64,000 nt of DNA from Legionellaceae bacterium (GCA_011087865.1 JAALKW010000002.1:13683-77682), one strand, 5' to 3'. Shown: positions 2,543 through 11,454, counted from the stretch's first letter. Program-made: numbers and translations. The notes: generated by a model from the letters alone, not told the origin.

Positions 2543-2618
2543 TCCCCGGTAGCTCAGTTGGTAGAGCGGATGACTGTTAATCATTAGGTCACAGGTTCGA
2601 GCCCTGTCCGGGGAGCCA
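2543..2618 (+). tRNA. tRNA-Asn (anticodon GTT)
   Basis: 76-nt cloverleaf. Acceptor stem tccccgg/ccgggga, D-arm agctcagttggtagagc, anticodon loop ctGTTaa, T-arm aggttcgagccct, encoded CCA. Close to my recollection of E. coli tRNA-Asn. Confidence 0.93.
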
Positions 2619-2666
2619 TTCACATGTGGCTTCTAGTAAAATTTCTTTTCTTATAAAATATGCTAA

Positions 2667-2694
2667 TAATCAATAGGGCCAGGTTTAATTGATA
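2667..2694 (+). repeat. 28-bp direct repeat, copy 1 (taatcaatagggccaggtttaattgata)
   Basis: Matches 3830-3857 at 27 of 28 positions. It is internally palindromic (ATCAAT-N14-ATTGAT). Confidence 0.85.
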
Positions 2695-2709
2695 ATTTAA
2701 ACACAACGC

Positions 2710-3789
2710 TTATTCAGAGGTAGCTTTTTTACCACCCTTGATTTCATTTAACTCTGCTTCAATTTCTTCTACGCTAGGTAAACTAGTTTTAAACGCTTTG
2801 GGAATGGCTTTTGACAACGTATATTCAGAAATACCAATGGGGGCTTTCATATTACGTAAAGCATATTCAGCAACAACTTTATTTTTCGATTTACACAGCA
2901 AAATACCAATGGTTTGATTATCACCCTCTTTACGCATCAGCTCATCAACTGCTGTCATATAAAAACCAAGCTGTCCTGTGTGTTCCGGTTTAAATTTGGT
3001 CGCCTTTAACTCAATTACAACGAATGACCGCAGGTGCAGATGATAAAAAAGTAAATCAACAAAAAACTCTTGATCGTCGAACGTTAATGGCACCTGCGAG
3101 CCAACAAAAGCAAAACCTTGCCCAAGCTCAATAAGAAAATTACGAATATGTGTCACTAAAGCGTCTTCAACAGCACGCTCATGTGCTTTGCCATGAATGG
3201 TTAGAAAATCAAAATTAAATGGATCTTTTAATATTTCATTGGCTAAATCAGACTGAGCAGCAGATAAATGCTCATGATAATTAGAAGTTTTTTTATTGAT
3301 GACCGCCTGCCTGTTATATAATTCACTTTCGACTTGTATCTCTAACATCGAACGCGACCATCCATTTTTAATGGCTTGCTGTGCATACCACTCACGTTCA
3401 ACATCATTCTTCACCATTTGCATCAAACGAACAATATGCCCCCATGGTAATTGCGAAACAGCTTGTTTCGTAAATTCAAGCTGAGGATAAACAGATGCAA
3501 ATTTCCGCATATTCTCAAGATTTCTCACGGAAAAGCCCTGCATCGCTGGAAAATCTTGTCGTATGTCATGTGAAAATTGCTCAAGAAAACGTGATCCCCA
3601 CTGATGATTTTTTTGTTTCTCAATCAAATCACGACCGAGTTCCCAGTAAAATTTAATGAGTTCATGATTGGCTGCTAATGCTGCTCTGATTTGTGCGGTT
3701 TTTAACCTTTCTTTAATGCCACTGAAAAAATCCACATAATCTTTATTAAGACGAAGTGCATCATCATGAATTTTGATTACTTTACTCAT
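2710..3789 (-). CDS. DUF1016/YhcG-family PD-(D/E)XK nuclease-like protein
   Basis: 359 aa. The N-terminal helical region (ELIKFYWELGRDLIEKQ, WGSRFLEQFSHDIRQDFP..GFSVRNLENMRKF) and the C-terminal DLLFYHLHLRSFVVIELK block are typical of YhcG-like proteins. Confidence 0.7.
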   Translation of the reverse strand: MSKVIKIHDDALRLNKDYVDFFSGIKERLKTAQIRAALAANHELIKFYWELGRDLIEKQKNHQWGSRFLEQFSHDIRQDFPAMQGFSVRNLENMRKFASVYPQLEFTKQAVSQLPWGHIVRLMQMVKNDVEREWYAQQAIKNGWSRSMLEIQVESELYNRQAVINKKTSNYHEHLSAAQSDLANEILKDPFNFDFLTIHGKAHERAVEDALVTHIRNFLIELGQGFAFVGSQVPLTFDDQEFFVDLLFYHLHLRSFVVIELKATKFKPEHTGQLGFYMTAVDELMRKEGDNQTIGILLCKSKNKVVAEYALRNMKAPIGISEYTLSKAIPKAFKTSLPSVEEIEAELNEIKGGKKATSE

Positions 3790-3829
3790 AAACTACTCCT
3801 TGTTGGTTGGATTGATGGGGCCATTCGTG

Positions 3830-3857
3830 TAATCAATCGGGCCAGGTTTAATTGATA
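3830..3857 (+). repeat. 28-bp direct repeat, copy 2 (taatcaatcgggccaggtttaattgata)
   Basis: One mismatch to copy 1. Together the two copies bracket only the YhcG-like gene. Confidence 0.85.
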
Positions 3858-3968
3858 TGTCTAAGAGATATTTATAAAGAAATTGCTTGGATTCAACCAA
3901 CTCATTACACAGCTCTTCTGTGTAGGTTATTAGATCAAGCATACAGCCCCATCTTATCGGGTAACCCA

Positions 3969-4014
3969 CGTTACCAGCTACGGGATCATAGGTTGAGCCC
4001 CGTAGCTGGTAACG
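3969..4014. repeat. Perfect 16-bp inverted repeat (stem-loop) with a 14-nt loop
   Basis: cgttaccagctacggg (3969-3984) pairs with cccgtagctggtaacg (3999-4014). It lies in the gap between the 473-aa gene and the YhcG-like gene. No adjacent T-run follows on the minus strand. Confidence 0.8.
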
Positions 4015-4105
4015 ATTCGTTCGTGGTATCTTTCGTTCGAACCACATTTTTCCAGTCTCATTAAAAAACAAGACCCCAAGCCCTGTAGATAAAAATTTTC
4101 TAATT

Positions 4106-5527
4106 TTAACTCTCAAATTGCTTCAGTCGTTTGACCAACTCAAAATAATAGGGCGCTGTTGTGATACGGTGCGCATCATCTCCCATGTTTTCAATGCCTT
4201 GAGCCGTATATTTATGATGAACTGCTTTTAAATAATCAATCACGACTTGTTTAGACTGAGGCTCTAATAAGTTTGCTCCTGAAGCTTGATACCCTATAGA
4301 CAGTGGTCCAAAAAAGTAGCTATCTAAATCTGCATTGTTTGCCCGACCCAGCTCATCCACTATGGATTGTATATAAATAGATTGAAATGCTTTTGATTGA
4401 TGCACTAAAGTGTACTTCAACATAATAGAAGCGTAGTGATCTACGCTTAACAACCACTTGTCTATTTTGTCTCGTTTTATGGTAATTTCTTCAGGTGAAT
4501 GCGTATCAATAACGCCCCGAATCACATCATCTGCCATGCTTGCATTTAAAGATTTAGCGTCAAGTAATTCACTAAAAAAAGCTTTTAAAAGCGGCTGCTC
4601 ATCGTCTAAATAAGATGCTATATTGCTATGTCGCTGATCATACAGCATTAAAGCTTGAACAATTTTATTTTTTACTGCGATGCGATTTGTTTCAGCATAT
4701 AACTTTAATAATTTTTTGACTAAATCCGGCTCTATGTCATCTGCAAGCAGTCTGTCAATCATGATGCCACGTTTAATATCCATTAAATTTGAGTCATGAG
4801 CAAACTGTATCTGAACAGCCGAGGGCGAAGTGACATAATTAATGGGAGGCGCATCCATCAGTGTTTGAAAAGCCTCATGGGACATCGTATTGAGCGTTTC
4901 CGCCGTTACATGCTCTAAAGATTGATCCATAGCTGTTTCTTGCGGTTGGTTAAAAACAGGCTCTGCAAATCGCTCATTATTAGCATAAGGAAAATAATTA
5001 AATAATTTTTTTGGTAACCATACTCGGCCTGGCATGGTATCTAACCCTTGACTGAAAAACGCCCACCAAACATAAGTGTCACAACGCCACGTGCCACACG
5101 AATTGACTTGACCGCTTCTTGGATTGCCTGAGCCAATATGATATTTCGTATCAAATGTGTATTTAGGACACCACCATCGCTGATGATTTGCTTCAACAAG
5201 CACTTGATATCCAACTCGTCCTCTATCAGCAACACCATACTTGCTTCCCCAGTATCTAGATTGCGCTTTGAAATGACTGATTGAATTGATTTGTCCTACA
5301 GGGCTCTGATTACGAATTTCTATCCCTTGCGTGGCATTTTTTTTCATCCCTTCCGGAGATGACATATCCGTTGTGGTAATACCAACATGACCTAGCCAAC
5401 CTAATCCAGGATAATTTAAATCTCGTCCCACAACTTCAGCTGGGTATATTTGTTTTGCATGACCAAGCGACGCAAGGCCTGTTATTACAATACTGATACT
5501 GAATAGCACTAGTTTTTTATCTTTCAT
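4106..5527 (-). CDS. Secreted protein of unknown function; possible permuted papain-like (NlpC/P60 or YiiX-type) N-domain plus helical C-domain
   Basis: 473 aa. Sec signal MKDKKLVLFSISIVITGLASLGHAKQ. A GHVGITT motif precedes WRCDTYVWWAF, a His-then-Cys order. The C-terminal ~250 aa look all-helical. Confidence 0.55.
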   Translation of the reverse strand: MKDKKLVLFSISIVITGLASLGHAKQIYPAEVVGRDLNYPGLGWLGHVGITTTDMSSPEGMKKNATQGIEIRNQSPVGQINSISHFKAQSRYWGSKYGVADRGRVGYQVLVEANHQRWWCPKYTFDTKYHIGSGNPRSGQVNSCGTWRCDTYVWWAFFSQGLDTMPGRVWLPKKLFNYFPYANNERFAEPVFNQPQETAMDQSLEHVTAETLNTMSHEAFQTLMDAPPINYVTSPSAVQIQFAHDSNLMDIKRGIMIDRLLADDIEPDLVKKLLKLYAETNRIAVKNKIVQALMLYDQRHSNIASYLDDEQPLLKAFFSELLDAKSLNASMADDVIRGVIDTHSPEEITIKRDKIDKWLLSVDHYASIMLKYTLVHQSKAFQSIYIQSIVDELGRANNADLDSYFFGPLSIGYQASGANLLEPQSKQVVIDYLKAVHHKYTAQGIENMGDDAHRITTAPYYFELVKRLKQFES

Positions 5528-5566
5528 CTTTTTAGTTCCGTCTATAAAATGAATAATTATTCTGAA

Positions 5567-6178
5567 TTATGCTTTGTCTGTTGAACTACATATGCGTCTG
5601 ATACATTGATGCGTTATGGAAAATAACAAATGAATAAGCAGTAACGTACAGGTCATAAAATAAAACATATCAATAGGCCCAATGTATGGCATGTGTATGT
5701 AGCGAAGCAAGAACGCTCCGCAGGCAATCAGCGCCATAATCAACCCTGAAAAAATAATGATATACGTTTTATGATTTTTTATTAATGCTGCTATTGCTGA
5801 AAATATAACCGAAAAAATCAAGCCATACAAAGCCATAAAATAAACAATAAACACCCACCACCCTCGCGCATCAGGATTATGATATGCAAGAATTAACGAA
5901 ATAAAGCACCCCTCTAAAAAACTAAAACTGATTATAAAAATATCTCTTTTAAATAATGCTCGTTTTTTTAATTGGTTTTCGGGTAGCGCGATAAGATATG
6001 CTGATTTTTCACTCCAGTAAACTGCGATTGCAACCAAAGGGAAGGTCAAGAAAAAACCTTCGAAAGAAGCATGGGCTGTATGATACTGCATGGCTAGCAC
6101 GGCACAAATAAATGTAAGCACAAGAGACCACGAATACCTATTGAATAACTTAATACGAACTTGATATTTTTTCTTCAT
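5567..6178 (-). CDS. Polytopic inner-membrane protein (about 6 TM), unknown function
   Basis: 203 aa, strongly hydrophobic segments. AAGGAT RBS upstream of the ATG. It sits 23 nt downstream of the TraE-like gene. Confidence 0.6.
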   Translation of the reverse strand: MKKKYQVRIKLFNRYSWSLVLTFICAVLAMQYHTAHASFEGFFLTFPLVAIAVYWSEKSAYLIALPENQLKKRALFKRDIFIISFSFLEGCFISLILAYHNPDARGWWVFIVYFMALYGLIFSVIFSAIAALIKNHKTYIIIFSGLIMALIACGAFLLRYIHMPYIGPIDMFYFMTCTLLLIHLLFSITHQCIRRICSSTDKA

Positions 6179-6201
6179 CTGCTAATCCTTTATCAGTCTT
6201 A

Positions 6202-6756
6202 TCAATCTAAACGCGAAAATTGCATTATTGTTAAACGACCTAAATGATATTGATATTGTATCTCATACTTTACAAGCTCTTCATGAAAAGCATGCGATTT
6301 AGTAGCACGCTTTAATTTTCCTGTGACCGTACAGGCTAAATGTTTTTCATCAAATTTTATGTCTTTTATTTCGAAATAACTCGCAATTTTTTTGCTATTT
6401 ATAACACGTGCTTCTTTGTTTAAAGCGTCTAAAAACTTGGGGTAATATTTAATATCCGCAAATGAAAGTAACCGTTTATGACTGGCTTTCACTGTCTCTG
6501 GTGTAATATTTAAACGCGAATATATAAAGTTTTCTGTCATCATCGAAAGATAATGATTGTCTGCGAAGATATCACTTTTTTGATAAGCCGATGTCCCAGA
6601 AAATGGGGTGATTTCTATTTTTTGGTGTAAAGTGCTATACCATGCCAAAGTAGCAGTTAAAAGATTGCTTAATACCAGTCCAAAAATAACAATCATCATA
6701 ATATTCAAACGTGTGGCAAACCGACTCAGTAGAGGTCGCTGTATCATAAAATCCAT
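6202..6756 (-). CDS. TraE-like protein (F-type conjugative T4SS TraE family), orphan copy
   Basis: Start chosen at MDFMIQRP (AAGGA RBS 7 nt upstream). One N-terminal TM. EITPF..ADNHYLSMMTENFIYSRLNITPETVKASHKRLL aligns with F-plasmid TraE AVTPM..ADASYLQQMALSFIALRLNVSSETVDASHQALL, as I recall that sequence. About 184 aa versus 188 aa for TraE. Confidence 0.6.
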   Translation of the reverse strand: MDFMIQRPLLSRFATRLNIMMIVIFGLVLSNLLTATLAWYSTLHQKIEITPFSGTSAYQKSDIFADNHYLSMMTENFIYSRLNITPETVKASHKRLLSFADIKYYPKFLDALNKEARVINSKKIASYFEIKDIKFDEKHLACTVTGKLKRATKSHAFHEELVKYEIQYQYHLGRLTIMQFSRLD

Positions 6757-6794
6757 TTCTAATTCCTTAATCATACAAAAAAAATAACGCACAT

Positions 6795-6834
6795 AAAAAG
6801 CAACCGACCACACATCTGCTCGTGGGTCGGTTGC
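6795..6834 (-). terminator. Intrinsic-terminator-like hairpin in the 5' leader of the TraE-like operon
   Basis: On the minus strand, gcaaccgacc..(loop)..ggtcggttgc forms a 10-bp GC-rich stem followed by TTTTT. It ends about 40 nt upstream of the start codon at 6756. No upstream same-strand gene needs it. Confidence 0.5.
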
Positions 6835-7017
6835 AAAGATTGGACTTACTCATAAGATGCTGAACAAATCAACGATCCCTTTGGTTTTGTTCTGTTATAA
6901 CCCTCCTTGTTTTATTTAATCAACTCACTTTAAACAAAAGCAGATCTATTCCATTTTGCTGCTTTTGCTTAAAACACAAAAAACATGATACATTGGCCCA
7001 TTTAATGATGACCGTTA

Positions 7018-7039
7018 AAACCAATAAAATTATTGGTTT
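7018..7039. promoter_or_regulatory. Palindromic operator-like site AAACCAATAA-aa-TTATTGGTTT
   Basis: Perfect 10-bp arms with a 2-nt spacer, in the divergent region between the CI-like repressor gene and the TraE-like operon. Confidence 0.5.
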
Positions 7040-7088
7040 GGATGGTATGGCAAATACTCTACCTGTGTCAACCTATTTATTAATTATT

Positions 7089-7098
7089 TTATTGGTTT
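7089..7098 (+). promoter_or_regulatory. Third copy of the TTATTGGTTT half-site
   Basis: Identical 10-mer located 11 nt upstream of the repressor ATG (7109). Confidence 0.4.
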
Positions 7099-7108
7099 AT
7101 AAAAATTT

Positions 7109-7744
7109 ATGACTATCGCGCTGCAAAATAATCTCAAAAAATTAATGATTAAACACGGCAACATGAGCGTCAGTGACTTAGCAAAAGCAACCCTCTTACC
7201 CCAACCTACTTTGTATCAGCTTTATACTGGCGTCACAGAAAACCCAAGAAAAAAAACACTGAGAGCCCTCGCAACTTACTTTTCAATTACAGTCAACCAA
7301 TTAATCGGGGAAGATACACTGCCTTCGCATTTACCCGAAAAAATTAAAAAACAATTAGAATTAAAGACAGCGCCTCTGCTTTCCTGGGATGATTTGCCGC
7401 ATTGGCCAGATCACATCAACTTTGACAATAAAAAAGAAATTTTTCTAGACGAAAAATCAAATCAAACAACCTTTGCGCTCACGATGCCTGATAACAGCAT
7501 GGAACCCATTTTTCCAAAACACAGTCTTTTAATTTTTGACGTGAAAAAAGCAACCGAAGATAATGACTGCGCTATTATTTTCTTAAAAAAGAGCCAACAA
7601 TTTAGTTTTAAAAAAATACGTATCCGTGAAAAAATACAATACGCCCAATCCATTAACCCTGCATCTGAACACGCAAAACCAACCGCCTTAACAAAACAAG
7701 ATAAAATCTTTGCAACATTACGAGAAGCCCGCTTAAGCTTTTAA
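7109..7744 (+). CDS. CI/LexA-like repressor (XRE HTH plus S24 peptidase-like C-domain)
   Basis: 211 aa. N-terminal HTH (MSVSDLAKATLLPQPTLYQLYTG). The C-terminal MPDNSMEPIFPKHSLLIFD resembles the GDSMEP serine motif of S24 autoproteases. Confidence 0.75.
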   Translation: MTIALQNNLKKLMIKHGNMSVSDLAKATLLPQPTLYQLYTGVTENPRKKTLRALATYFSITVNQLIGEDTLPSHLPEKIKKQLELKTAPLLSWDDLPHWPDHINFDNKKEIFLDEKSNQTTFALTMPDNSMEPIFPKHSLLIFDVKKATEDNDCAIIFLKKSQQFSFKKIRIREKIQYAQSINPASEHAKPTALTKQDKIFATLREARLSF

Positions 7745-7764
7745 ACAACAGGTTAAATGCGTGT

Positions 7765-8040
7765 CTATTCAACGGTATGATTAACGGCATCATTCACTGT
7801 ATCACTCACCCCTGCCATATAACCAATGCGATTCGCATCTTCAGGAGATAGTCTTTTAATAAGCGCTGGATCTTTCGAAATAAGCGATGCTGATTTATCT
7901 TTAATTAATGTGTTTTTACAATCGGTTAATGTCACACGATATTCTTGTAGCCCTGCATGAAATTTCAAAAAAATTACTTTTAAATGGTCTGCAAAACGAT
8001 TCGTGTTACTACTGTGGTTGTTGAACTTTACCCAATCCAT
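7765..8040 (-). CDS. Hypothetical protein
   Basis: ORF of 91-95 aa, starting at ATG 8040 or TTG 8052. No recognisable motif. Confidence 0.35.
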   Translation of the reverse strand: MDWVKFNNHSSNTNRFADHLKVIFLKFHAGLQEYRVTLTDCKNTLIKDKSASLISKDPALIKRLSPEDANRIGYMAGVSDTVNDAVNHTVE

Positions 8041-8135
8041 GATGTCGTCCAATAATGCTAGTTTAAAATATTACATTCCATACTTAGGACAAAATCCTAA
8101 CATAATTAAATAGTAAAAGCTTGTAAAAAACCCAT

Positions 8136-8236: not shown

Positions 8237-8485
8237 TTATTTTGCTTTATCTTTTAATTTTTTATAACCATCATTCAAGTTCTGACCCACTCGATTCACT
8301 GCGCCAGAAGCTTCACCAACCATTCGGTTTGCAGCACCACCGGCCTCATTCAATAAATCAGCAGCTACGTTTTCTACATTGTCTTCTGACTGCTTCACGG
8401 TATCAGGATGATCAGCAAAAGCATTCGCTCCCAATCCAACCAAAGTAAAAGCAAACAAAGATACCGCTAACCTTAACTTTTTCAT
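8237..8485 (-). CDS. Small secreted protein
   Basis: Start at MKKLRLAVSLFAFTLVGLGANAFA (signal peptide), with an AAGGAG RBS. The mature part is about 58 aa and has a GGAANRMVGEASGAVNRVG repeat. Confidence 0.6.
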   Translation of the reverse strand: MKKLRLAVSLFAFTLVGLGANAFADHPDTVKQSEDNVENVAADLLNEAGGAANRMVGEASGAVNRVGQNLNDGYKKLKDKAK

Positions 8486-8576
8486 CACAAGCTCCTTCTC
8501 AATTAATATCAATCAAAACCCTCATGCTTAACACTAGACCATAGGCTAATATTAATCAAAAAAAACAATTAAATAG

Positions 8577-8612
8577 CAAAAAAGCCCTGCATTTTAAAAA
8601 ATACAGGGCTTT
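8577..8612 (-). terminator. Bidirectional rho-independent terminator
   Basis: aaagccctg / cagggcttt stem (8581-8589 / 8604-8612), flanked by an A-run upstream and a T-run downstream. It lies downstream of the 8666-8953 minus-strand gene. Confidence 0.7.
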
Positions 8613-8665
8613 TTCTATAGGATAAATAACCCATACCCTATGTATCGTTTTATATTGCTTGCTCT

Positions 8666-8953
8666 TTATCGAACAACTTCTCCAACATCCTGAGCACCAT
8701 CATTCAGCCCTTGATAGCCCATGCCGCCGAGCTGATCTGCAGTGTTTGTTCCATGTTTTATCAGTTGATTCACGTGTCGATGAACCTGATGCGCAGGAGG
8801 AGGCAAATCATGCTTTCTATCCATATGACGCTCCATCTGATGCTCCATACGACGCTCTTGAACCCGATGTGCTCTATCGGCATATGCAGCAGCACTGACA
8901 CCTAAAAAAGCTGTACTGAATAACACAGCTGATAAAATACTTAATATTTTCAT
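8666..8953 (-). CDS. Small secreted histidine-rich protein
   Basis: Signal peptide MKILSILSAVLFSTAFLGVSAAAYA, GAGGAG RBS. The mature region is rich in H, R and M (HRVQERRMEHQMERHMDRKHD..HQVHRH). Confidence 0.6.
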   Translation of the reverse strand: MKILSILSAVLFSTAFLGVSAAAYADRAHRVQERRMEHQMERHMDRKHDLPPPAHQVHRHVNQLIKHGTNTADQLGGMGYQGLNDGAQDVGEVVR

Positions 8954-9936: not shown

Positions 9937-11454
9937 CTACTCCTTTGTTTGATGTGTTGGCATAGAAAACACGCCATCCTTTGCTTCTCCAACTTCAGGC
10001 CAACGTGCTGTCACTGTTTTAGCGCGCGTATAAAAATGCATACTTTCCGCACCATGCATCGCGGTATCTCCAAAAATAGAACGCTTCCAACCGCCAAAAG
10101 GATGCGTTGCAATGTGTACTGGAATGGGTATATTCACGCCAACCATGCCCACCTGCACTTGTTGGCTATATGCACGCGCATGATATCCTGATCCCGTAAA
10201 AATTGCTGTCCCATTGCCGTATGGATTACGGTTAACCAGCCGCACAGCCGGTTCAAAGGCTTGTACCCGTAACACCAATAAAACAGGCCCAAAAATTTCC
10301 TCTTGATAAACCGCCATCGATTCAGTCACATGATCAAAGAGTGATGGTCCTACAAAATAACCATTAGGGTAAGAGGCATGCTGAAAAGCACGTCCATCAA
10401 TCACTAAGTCTGCACCTGCCTCAACGCCACAGGTTACAGCATCTAGTACGCGCGCACGATGTGCCTCACTGATTAAAGGCCCCATATCAACAGACGCTGC
10501 ATCTCCCACATCAATCTGAATACCTTGTATTTTAGGTTTTAAGTGTCGAATTAACTCATCTGCAACCGTATCTCCGACAGCAACGACCACAGAAATGGCC
10601 ATACATCGCTCACCTGCCGAACCAAAAGCGGCTCCCATTAAAGCATTTGCAGTTTGCTCAATATCAGCGTCAGGCATAACCACTGCATGATTTTTAGCCC
10701 CCCCAAAAGTATGTGCTCGCTTCCCCTGTCGTGTTGCCTCAACATAAATCGACTTCGCAACAGGCGTTGAAGCAACGGCTGTAAAAGATGAAATATCTGG
10801 ATGCGCTAATAAATAATCAACTGTCGTTTTATCACCATGTAACACCTGAACAACACCGGGGGGTAACCCTGCCTCTTACAATAAATTTAATAAGTAATTC
10901 GCTGATAATGGCACTTGTTCAGACGGCTTTAAAATAAAAGCATTGCCCGCTGCAATCGCTGGAATCATCATCCATGTTGGCACCATAACCGGAAAATTAA
11001 ACGGCGATACACCCGCACAAACGCCTAGTGGTTCACGCGTGGTCCAGCAATCAATCGACGTTGAAACATTTGCAGAAAAAGTGCCTTGCAGTGCTTTCAA
11101 CGCGCCACAATGTAATTCAACCACCTCAATTGCACGTAAAATAGAGCCTGTTGCATCGGCCAATGTTTTACCCTGCTCTTGTGTGACAAGCGCTGCCAAT
11201 GTAGCCTGATTTTTTTCTAGCAAAGCACGAAATTTAAAAAGAACTTGTGCACGTTTAATCGGTGGCTTAGCTGACCATTGACGGAAGGCTTCTCTCGCCG
11301 TTTCAACAGCTTGCTGACAAATGATTCTATCTGCCACAGGCACTCTTGCAATGATTTCACCGGTCGCAGGATTAGTGACATCCAAAAAAGAACCGCCTTT
11401 AGGCGTCACGCGCTCCCCGCCAATCCTATGGGGTACAGTATCAATCATTATCAA
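9937..11454 (-). pseudogene. mmsA: Methylmalonate-semialdehyde dehydrogenase interrupted by one in-frame TAA (10876-10878)
   Basis: The two track ORFs (10876..11454 and 9937..10845) are in the same frame. The read-through sequence is [36 protein letters not shown]. The catalytic FGSAGERCMA motif is in the downstream part. Confidence 0.85.

Follow-up and report, generated by a model that had tools for sequence, protein, structure and literature searches.

A repressor-traE pair, probably a conserved relic of an F-type conjugative element, and a separate exported-protein cassette at a variable chromosomal site of a Legionellaceae bacterium

We analyzed a window of 64,000 nucleotides (nt) from a Legionellaceae bacterium (GCA_011087865.1 JAALKW010000002.1:13683-77682), in which the gene for a CI/LexA-type repressor is divergent from three closely spaced minus-strand genes that encode, in order, a TraE-like protein, a membrane protein with approximately six transmembrane (TM) segments (the 6-TM protein) and an exported protein of 473 residues (the 473-aa protein). 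A preliminary description of this stretch had joined all four into a single repressor-controlled module, either a remnant of a conjugative element or a small dedicated envelope-acting system; the comparisons reported here point to a mosaic, in which the repressor and traE are likely a conserved relic of an integrative and conjugative element (ICE) with an F-type type IV secretion system (T4SS), and the other two genes a separate cassette. The four open reading frames (ORFs) were reproduced by our ORF list exactly as previously delimited (Table 1), including the claimed gaps of 23 nt (6179-6201) and 39 nt (5528-5566), with the qualification that public gene calls for traE use the alternative upstream starts at 6774 or 6813. 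A consensus scan flagged no terminator-like or promoter-like site between traE, the 6-TM gene and the 473-aa gene, and transcription probably stops at the terminator-like hairpin that follows the last of these genes and falls within the doubtful orf107 (3793-4116).

The TraE assignment holds in profile searches: PF05309 is matched over profile positions 1-181 of 182 (E 2e-36, 125.5 bits against a cutoff of 24.8) and TIGR02761 scores above its cutoff as well (119.5 bits, cutoff 109.05), while hydropathy gives a bitopic protein with one N-terminal TM segment at residues 19-37. The window traE does not belong to a traA-traL-traE-traK-traB mating-pair operon and, as had been claimed, no other tra gene accompanies it, because tblastn with 19 F-type tra and lvr proteins of a full relative recovered TraE alone in the 64 kb, with no match in the window to lvrA, p176, CsrA or TraT, TraA, TraL, TraK, TraB, TraV, TraC, TraU, TraN, TraF or TraH. 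The CI/LexA-type classification of the 211-residue repressor was likewise borne out, with HTH_26 (2.9e-09) and Peptidase_S24 (1.6e-07) both above their Pfam cutoffs and a PHROG match to a transcriptional repressor (5.6e-18). In an alignment with the E. coli LexA sequence, repressor residues Ser130 and Lys168 correspond to LexA Ser119 and Lys156, and both are kept in 5/5 orthologues from orphan traE loci. The same alignment places neither Ala-Gly nor Cys-Gly at the LexA cleavage site, where the repressor linker reads ...ELKTAPLLSW... and the LexA AG falls opposite a gap; RecA-stimulated, SOS-type self-cleavage of the repressor is possible.

Table 1. Features of the locus and of its surroundings in the window
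Feature	Position	Strand	Basis and remarks
Repressor, 211 aa	7109..7744	+	ORF list
Second operator half-site TTATTGGTTT	7082..7098		inverted repeat with 7018-7034; directly 5' of repressor start codon
Sigma-70-like promoter facing traE	7042..7071	-	-35 TTGACA (7071-7066), -10 TACCAT (7047-7042)
Putative operator, perfect 22-bp palindrome AAACCAATAAAATTATTGGTTT	7018..7039		inverted-repeat search
Shine-Dalgarno-like CAAGGAGGG inside leader	6901..6909	-	conserved alignment block
Conserved leader element, ~40 nt 5' of traE ATG	6795..6849	-	alignments
traE	6202..6756	-	ORF list; ATG at 6756; upstream starts 6774 and 6813 also open
203-aa membrane protein (~6 TM)	5567..6178	-	ORF list
473-aa protein	4106..5527	-	ORF list
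Terminator-like hairpin and T-run	4068..4086	-	consensus scan; directly 3' of 473-aa gene stop codon
YhcG/DUF1016 PD-(D/E)XK nuclease	2710..3789	-	Pfam YhcG_C 2e-63, DUF1016_N 3e-42
tRNA-Asn(GTT)	2543..2618	+	ARAGORN; one edge of variable region
orf95	7765..8052	-	C-terminal remnant of a 158-aa gene; tblastn 40-74% to that gene in L057-L062

The locus is bordered by tRNA-Asn and aspC at one end and by mmsB-mmsA-dapB-proQ-pgk at the opposite end, in a region with a G+C content of 35-39% compared with 41-45% in its flanks. The divergent repressor-traE pair recurs at this same chromosomal site in at least six related Legionella lineages, with flanks that read proQ-dapB-mmsA-mmsB, then in some cases Vut_1, then the repressor divergent from traE, and finally aspC-uvrB-cox. 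Orthologues of the repressor, 65-69% identical, stand beside every orphan traE, and the gene that follows traE changes from lineage to lineage: a Bro-N gene in L057, Transposase_31 in both L058 and L059, a convergent gene of 470 residues in L060, a 252-residue gene and an Ank protein in L062 and YhcG directly after traE in L097. The 470-residue gene of L060 was considered as a homologue of the 473-aa protein and rejected, as tblastn shows the two not to be homologous. A further arrangement at the same site, in L067 (1408-3500), consists of traE, a frameshifted homologue of the 473-aa gene, a 34-residue YhcG fragment and a DDE transposase of an insertion sequence (IS), preceded by a different upstream helix-turn-helix (HTH) repressor and a degenerate leader motif and lacking the 6-TM gene.

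The preliminary description had pointed out that full tra operons with these same neighbours would show the trio to be merely a fragment, and such an operon does exist. On the contig carrying P0131 (JGI 3300072015), at this same chromosomal site between proQ-dapB-mmsA-mmsB and the genes downstream, an HTH repressor is divergent from traT-traA-traL-traE-traK-traB-...-traC, and the TraE it encodes is 63% identical to that of the window. More distant relatives have the order Vut_1-repressor divergent from lvrA-lvrB-CsrA(lvrC)-traT-traA-traL-traE-traK-traB-traV-traC-..., an arrangement that matches the lvrRABC module located upstream of Legionella P- and F-type type IVA secretion systems (T4ASS) on tRNA-associated islands (PMC3864950). 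Among the metagenome relatives of TraE outside the orphan clade, all 25 with enough flanking sequence (of 29) have traA/traL before traE, traK/traB after it, or both. While another lineage has a related full element at this site, the window itself lacks a full conjugation module, lvrABC, an integrase and an att repeat: Pfam detected no integrase domain in the ORFs from 2619 to 8100, phage genes are absent, and the 25-nt 3' end of the tRNA-Asn gene, searched in the window with up to three mismatches, recovers the gene itself and no att repeat (attL/attR).

A neighbour-joining tree of 35 TraEs groups the orphan proteins together with that of L067 into a single clade with 99% bootstrap support (72% without L067), and places the TraE of the same-site full element as its sister (77%). 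The orphan clade comprises 17 clusters, and traE is intact in all seven for which flanks were seen. Within the clade, traE has a ratio of nonsynonymous to synonymous substitution rates (dN/dS) of 0.10-0.18 and the repressor gene one of 0.08-0.14, at dS values that are at least 1 and often saturated. Sequence identities across the orphan lineages are 57-72% for TraE, 65-69% for the repressor and 69-93% for neighbouring core proteins, and the lineages rank alike in all three sets, which fits vertical descent. Literature searches for an orphan traE in Legionella, or for a remnant of one, yielded no relevant record.

The region between repressor and traE, 352 nt in the window and 345-425 nt in five lineages, is alignable throughout and contains several conserved elements. 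A scan identified the promoter facing traE as the best in the region, with 10/12 consensus matches; its -35 hexamer is invariant, and its -10 hexamer is shared by 4/5 lineages, the fifth, L060, having TACTAT. Just 3' of the -10, and overlapping the predicted start of the minus-strand transcript, lies the palindrome AAACCAATAAAATTATTGGTTT, the core of which is invariant in the alignment and which is unique in the window, where 0.10 chance matches would be expected. The block AAACCAATAAAAT, matching the half-site TTATTGGTTT, is also invariant, and this half-site is a putative autoregulatory site. Upstream of the orphan traE extends a conserved leader of approximately 240-300 nt (6757-7035 on the minus strand), whose traE-proximal element contains an invariant GTAAGTCCA (6841-6849), a hairpin with 10-bp arms (6825-6834/6800-6809) and a T-run (6795-6799). 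The hairpin arms are paired in 60/60 cells across six sequences, with compensatory changes at two pairs, compared with 12-52% of cells when the partner arm is slid by one to three columns. All orphan loci share these leader elements, and no full-operon locus compared has them; Rfam returned no match for the leader and a metagenome scan for its hairpin motif found none. The conserved leader could be an attenuator, a small RNA (sRNA), a CsrA target or a relic origin of transfer. A small ORF behind the Shine-Dalgarno-like CAAGGAGGG was considered and set aside for its inconsistent presence across lineages, start-stop mini-ORFs being found in L058 and L060 and not in the window.

The two genes downstream of traE have a different distribution. 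An exact-sequence look-up of the 473-aa protein and a genome scan with single-sequence patterns gave no match, and an alignment-based scan then yielded 45 genome loci encoding its relatives, whose 10-kb flanks were searched by tblastn with all window proteins. TraE is encoded at 0/45 of these loci and a repressor homologue, 30% identical, at one. The 6-TM gene lies directly upstream of the 473-aa homologue on the same strand, at a gap of 1-145 nt, in approximately 13 of the approximately 40 informative loci, including those of L. adelaidensis, L. fairfieldensis and L. pneumophila subsp. fraseri, with the 473-aa protein 38-55% identical; in the other 27 or so the 473-aa gene stands without it. 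The 6-TM and 473-aa genes are an independent two-gene cassette found in many unrelated Legionellaceae contexts, in which the 6-TM gene is a facultative upstream partner. The complete trio, whose recurrence elsewhere the three-gene proposal called for, was recovered only on four contigs, each with 99-100% identity to the window, and none of six divergent orphan-traE lineages carries the 6-TM/473-aa pair intact. In the nearest sequenced relative, the metagenome-assembled genome (MAG) JASJHH01, the divergent repressor and traE are followed by Bro-N on one contig, and a 71%-identical 473-aa gene lies on another, where none of the remaining genes has a counterpart in the first 20 kb of the window.

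The 473-aa protein begins, as had been described, with a signal-peptide-like segment by hydropathy, and its 144 close homologues are all unnamed or annotated as hypothetical. An AlphaFold2 model with a confidence (pLDDT) of 83 contains the signal peptide, an alpha/beta N-domain (residues ~27-190, pLDDT 69-85) and an all-helical repeat C-domain (~205-470). Searched against 1.8 billion representatives, a profile of the N-domain retrieves 299 clusters (at 50% identity) with E <= 1e-3, which occur as stand-alone proteins of approximately 180 residues and as proteins of approximately 450-550 and 620-750 residues, with an N-terminal hydrophobic leader in 18/18 homologues sampled. Residues R35, G46-H47, E70, Q116, T124, R148-C149-D150 and P172 do not vary among the sampled homologues, His47 and Cys149 being the same in all of 19 distant members, and Cys119 and Cys144 are replaced together in 3/19 close homologues, a joint loss that would suit a disulfide-bonded pair in an exported protein. 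The 473-aa protein has no match in Pfam, NCBIfam, PADLOC or PHROG, 17 N-domain homologues give no Pfam or NCBIfam match at E<=10, and Pfam searches of 10 distant multi-domain relatives revealed no informative partner domain; a cluster look-up returned only hypothetical proteins. Sequence-profile searches of the PDB came back empty for the 473-aa and 6-TM families alike. By Foldseek, the C-domain has weak HEAT/ARM-like matches (E >= 0.03) and the N-domain nothing significant in the PDB (E > 0.5); CHAP-domain proteins in BFVD match the N-domain weakly (E 0.28-1.9). The possible cell-wall amidase-like fold attributed to the protein in the preliminary description thus found no profile or significant structural match, and the amidase idea was dropped as unsupported after PDB and BFVD fold searches with the full-length protein and the N-domain gave weak helical-repeat matches and no enzyme fold. 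From its conserved residues, the biochemical activity of the protein may be that of a thiol-dependent hydrolase or transferase.

Harvfovirus, a giant amoebal virus, encodes the best BFVD neighbour of the N-domain (4927-5455, minus strand), an uncharacterised protein (E 0.013, structural TM score 0.42), and a 558-residue paralogue (P0185) is present in L. pneumophila serogroup 1. Accessory exported proteins of Legionellaceae often target amoebal hosts. The 6-TM protein, for which hydropathy gives five to six hydrophobic segments in keeping with the earlier topology, shows the conserved polar motifs Y99-x-N-S-D...W-W and N-H136-K137 in alignment, and the only family signal among its relatives is a sub-threshold match to ABC2_membrane_3 in 5/12 members. 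Two uncharacterised families, so far centred on Legionellaceae, are thereby delimited, an exported domain with a His/Cys motif and its 6-TM partner.

Further towards the tRNA gene lies YhcG, which matches the PADLOC candidate defence family PDC-S02 (2.5e-141) and is flanked by 28-nt direct repeats (2667-2694 and 3830-3857). It is 93% identical at the nucleotide level to the YhcG of L097 (1426-2382), whereas the TraEs of the two genomes are 65% identical, and this disparity, together with the flanking repeats, points to a recently exchanged cassette. YhcG looks like a separate cassette that seemingly targets the same hot spot and lies outside the proposed module. Between the relic traE and tRNA-Asn/aspC lies a hot spot for cargo, for which three states are seen: traE followed by YhcG in L097, traE followed by a broken 473-aa gene, a YhcG fragment and an IS in L067, and traE followed by the 6-TM gene, the 473-aa gene and YhcG in the window.

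On these gene identities, distributions, syntenies, phylogeny, selection and conserved cis-elements, we consider it likely that the repressor and traE are a conserved relic of an lvrR-type F-type ICE, that the 6-TM/473-aa pair is a separate, captured cassette and that YhcG is a third component. The derivation of repressor and traE from an ICE rests on the same-site orphan pairs with differing downstream genes and on the full F-type operon at the same site. Of the two origins offered in the preliminary description, that of a conjugative-element remnant therefore stands for the repressor and traE, given the same-site full operon, and that of a dedicated envelope module does not, given the absence of TraE from all 45 loci of 473-aa relatives. 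Several points weigh against this reading as a whole. The repressor of the same-site full element has 227 residues and no S24 match and may be non-orthologous; and no traK, traL, traA or traT remnants are detectable, neither the window nor the orphan loci holding pseudogene traces of these genes or of lvrABC at E<1. The adjacency of traE and a 473-aa gene is not unique to the window, since it recurs in L067, where the 473-aa gene is frameshifted and the 6-TM gene absent. Furthermore, the covariation test of the leader hairpin is weak with six sequences, the observed score being equalled in 35/500 shuffles, the saturated dS makes the dN/dS values rough, the roles of promoter, operator and terminator are putative, and the genomes are MAGs, so that tra genes could lie elsewhere in them.

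Were the repressor, TraE, the 6-TM protein and the exported protein instead one dedicated envelope-acting module for entry exclusion, envelope remodelling or an abortive-infection-like response, induced upon inactivation of the repressor, one would expect the tight same-strand spacing, the lack of a flagged internal terminator or promoter with a single terminator at the end, and the envelope nature of all three products, and the L067 locus, too, has traE directly before a 473-aa homologue. The gene distributions have already gone most of the way to refuting this reading: TraE is missing from every locus of the 473-aa family, where a single 30%-identical repressor was found, at least five orphan-traE lineages have unrelated genes downstream, the L067 copy of the 473-aa gene is a pseudogene with its 6-TM partner missing, and the closest relative holds the genes on separate contigs. 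None of the three proteins has a PADLOC match either. We regard a single module as very improbable; no new repressor-controlled envelope system is seen here and the module label is unwarranted.

Two further explanations concern the pair itself. A traE that complements a T4SS encoded elsewhere, be it another F-type, Lvh or Dot/Icm-associated system, would make the locus a piece of a dispersed apparatus; several T4SSs are common in Legionella genomes (PMC3864950), dotA is among the genes of the window and purifying selection acting on traE calls for an explanation. Every full F-type locus recovered has its own traE between traL and traK, however, and no tra operon lacking traE was seen among the recovered loci, which are MAG contigs, so that we hold such complementation to be unlikely. 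The pair could also be non-functional ICE debris not yet deleted, its conservation reflecting recent and independent decay, as the lack of an integrase, att repeat and other tra genes, the hot-spot character of the region with transposases and pseudogenes in relatives, and the ongoing decay in L067 might suggest. Against this stand the intact traE in each of the orphan-clade clusters with visible flanks, the low dN/dS of traE at saturated dS and the Ser/Lys dyad kept in all five repressor orthologues; moreover, independent deletions would not yield a common traL-less leader with an invariant promoter, operator and hairpin. We judge debris to be quite unlikely, and a single ancient operon collapse followed by retention would account for the data better than independent recent decay.

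Under the preferred reading of a conserved ICE relic beside captured cargo, the locus would be a mosaic assembled in the variable region between mmsB and tRNA-Asn/aspC. The repressor, the 352-nt intergenic region and traE would be what is left of an lvrR-regulated F-type T4SS ICE, complete at the same site in a sister lineage, after loss of the other tra genes, lvrABC, integrase and att repeat, and this relic would have a single origin, vertical inheritance through several species-level splits and maintenance by purifying selection. In the predicted transcript map, the repressor would bind the 22-bp palindrome over the start of the strong minus-strand promoter as well as the half-site at its own start; derepression would yield a transcript of approximately 240 nt ending at the conserved hairpin with its U-run, and read-through past this hairpin would allow traE expression. 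Positioned 23 nt behind traE, the 6-TM/473-aa cassette has probably become co-transcribed with it through promoter capture in this genome only. That all three genes are transcribed together from the repressor-controlled promoter is plausible because no promoter or terminator was flagged between traE and the cassette and a terminator-like hairpin follows the 473-aa gene; in the window, such co-transcription would have come about by chance insertion and not reflect a conserved arrangement. The sites compared present ICE decay in stages at one position: a full element, traE with a pseudogene copy of the 473-aa gene, and traE alone.

More tentatively, and in our estimation a possibility that remains rather doubtful, the repressor, leader RNA and traE may have been domesticated as a stand-alone chromosomal unit beneficial to the host, with the relic promoter serving as a landing pad that puts new cargo, here the 6-TM/473-aa cassette, under ICE-type control. 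If so, traE would be kept under the control of an LvrR-type switch and of a leader that acts as a structured attenuator or resembles an sRNA. Its VirB8-like product, in a role no longer tied to the lost apparatus, might poison or exclude incoming F-type ICEs or modulate another T4SS such as Dot/Icm, and the retention of traE, if functional, would represent the exaptation of a single protein of the conjugation machinery.

The surroundings of the locus contain further traces of rearrangement and a number of smaller features. On the repressor side, the gene of which orf95 is a remnant lies, according to the gene tables of the relatives, between a methyltransferase gene and Vut_1, beside the repressor, and Vut_1 is missing from the window. 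Vut_1 adjoins the repressor in a full ICE (L064) as well, and may mark an ICE edge. Beyond orf95, two small minus-strand ORFs of 91 and 95 residues (8237-8512 and 8666-8953) have signal-peptide-like N-termini and no family match, and are separated by a 17-bp terminator-like palindrome (hairpin 8578-8615). The methylmalonate-semialdehyde dehydrogenase (Aldedh) gene mmsA is split on the minus strand into ORFs of 302 and 192 residues (9937-10845 and 10876-11454), while relatives have a single intact gene of 502-505 residues at the same position; the split copy is likely a pseudogene or a sequencing frameshift. On the tRNA side, orf107 (minus strand) extends over the stop codon of the 473-aa gene and includes a perfect 16-nt inverted repeat (3969-3984/3999-4014), its 3' end being one copy of the repeats that flank YhcG. 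It lacks a family match, is seen in near-identical contigs only, and is probably not a real gene. At 21431-24304, also on the minus strand, an ORF of 957 residues carries a DotA domain (PF11388, 1.6e-19), and the window accordingly holds part of a Dot/Icm type IVB secretion region. The sequence content of the window identifies it as Legionella-type chromosome, because Legionella, Tatlockia and Legionellaceae supply the great majority of the 473-aa homologues and because of this dotA.

Compared with known systems, the 473-aa protein resembles the papain-like cell-wall amidases of the NlpC/P60-CHAP type by motif only: it is likewise exported and has an invariant His47 and an invariant Cys149 at a helix start in a small alpha/beta domain, but differs in lacking a Pfam or NCBIfam match and a significant structural match in the PDB. 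With the S24 repressors of the phage lambda CI and LexA type, the window repressor shares the pairing of HTH and S24 domains, the Ser/Lys dyad, and a putative palindromic operator over the target promoter with a second site at the repressor's own start; unlike them, it has no Ala-Gly or Cys-Gly aligned to the LexA site and no phage genes around it. The window TraE has the same full-length profile match and bitopic topology as F-plasmid TraE, a VirB8-like bitopic inner-membrane T4SS subunit, but stands alone, without the traL and traK neighbours found with every other recovered homologue outside the orphan clade. The closest parallels are the Legionella ICE and T4ASS islands with lvrRABC (Tra/F-type, Lvh, Trb and LGI-T4SS; PMC3864950), which share an SOS-regulator-like HTH and S24 repressor divergent from the T4SS operon and a hypervariable, tRNA-adjacent location, and the window TraE falls in the same F-type clade as that of the lvrA-lvrB-CsrA-traT-traA-traL-traE-traK elements. 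Relative to an lvr-type ICE, the window keeps the repressor and traE only, without lvrABC, traT, traA, traL, traK, traB, traC, a relaxase, an integrase or an att repeat; its repressor is 28-30% identical to those of the full elements compared, none of which has the conserved leader of the relic. The element itself thus appears to be of a known kind, the Legionella lvr-type F-type ICE, and what would set it apart is a relic that is selectively maintained together with a structured leader.

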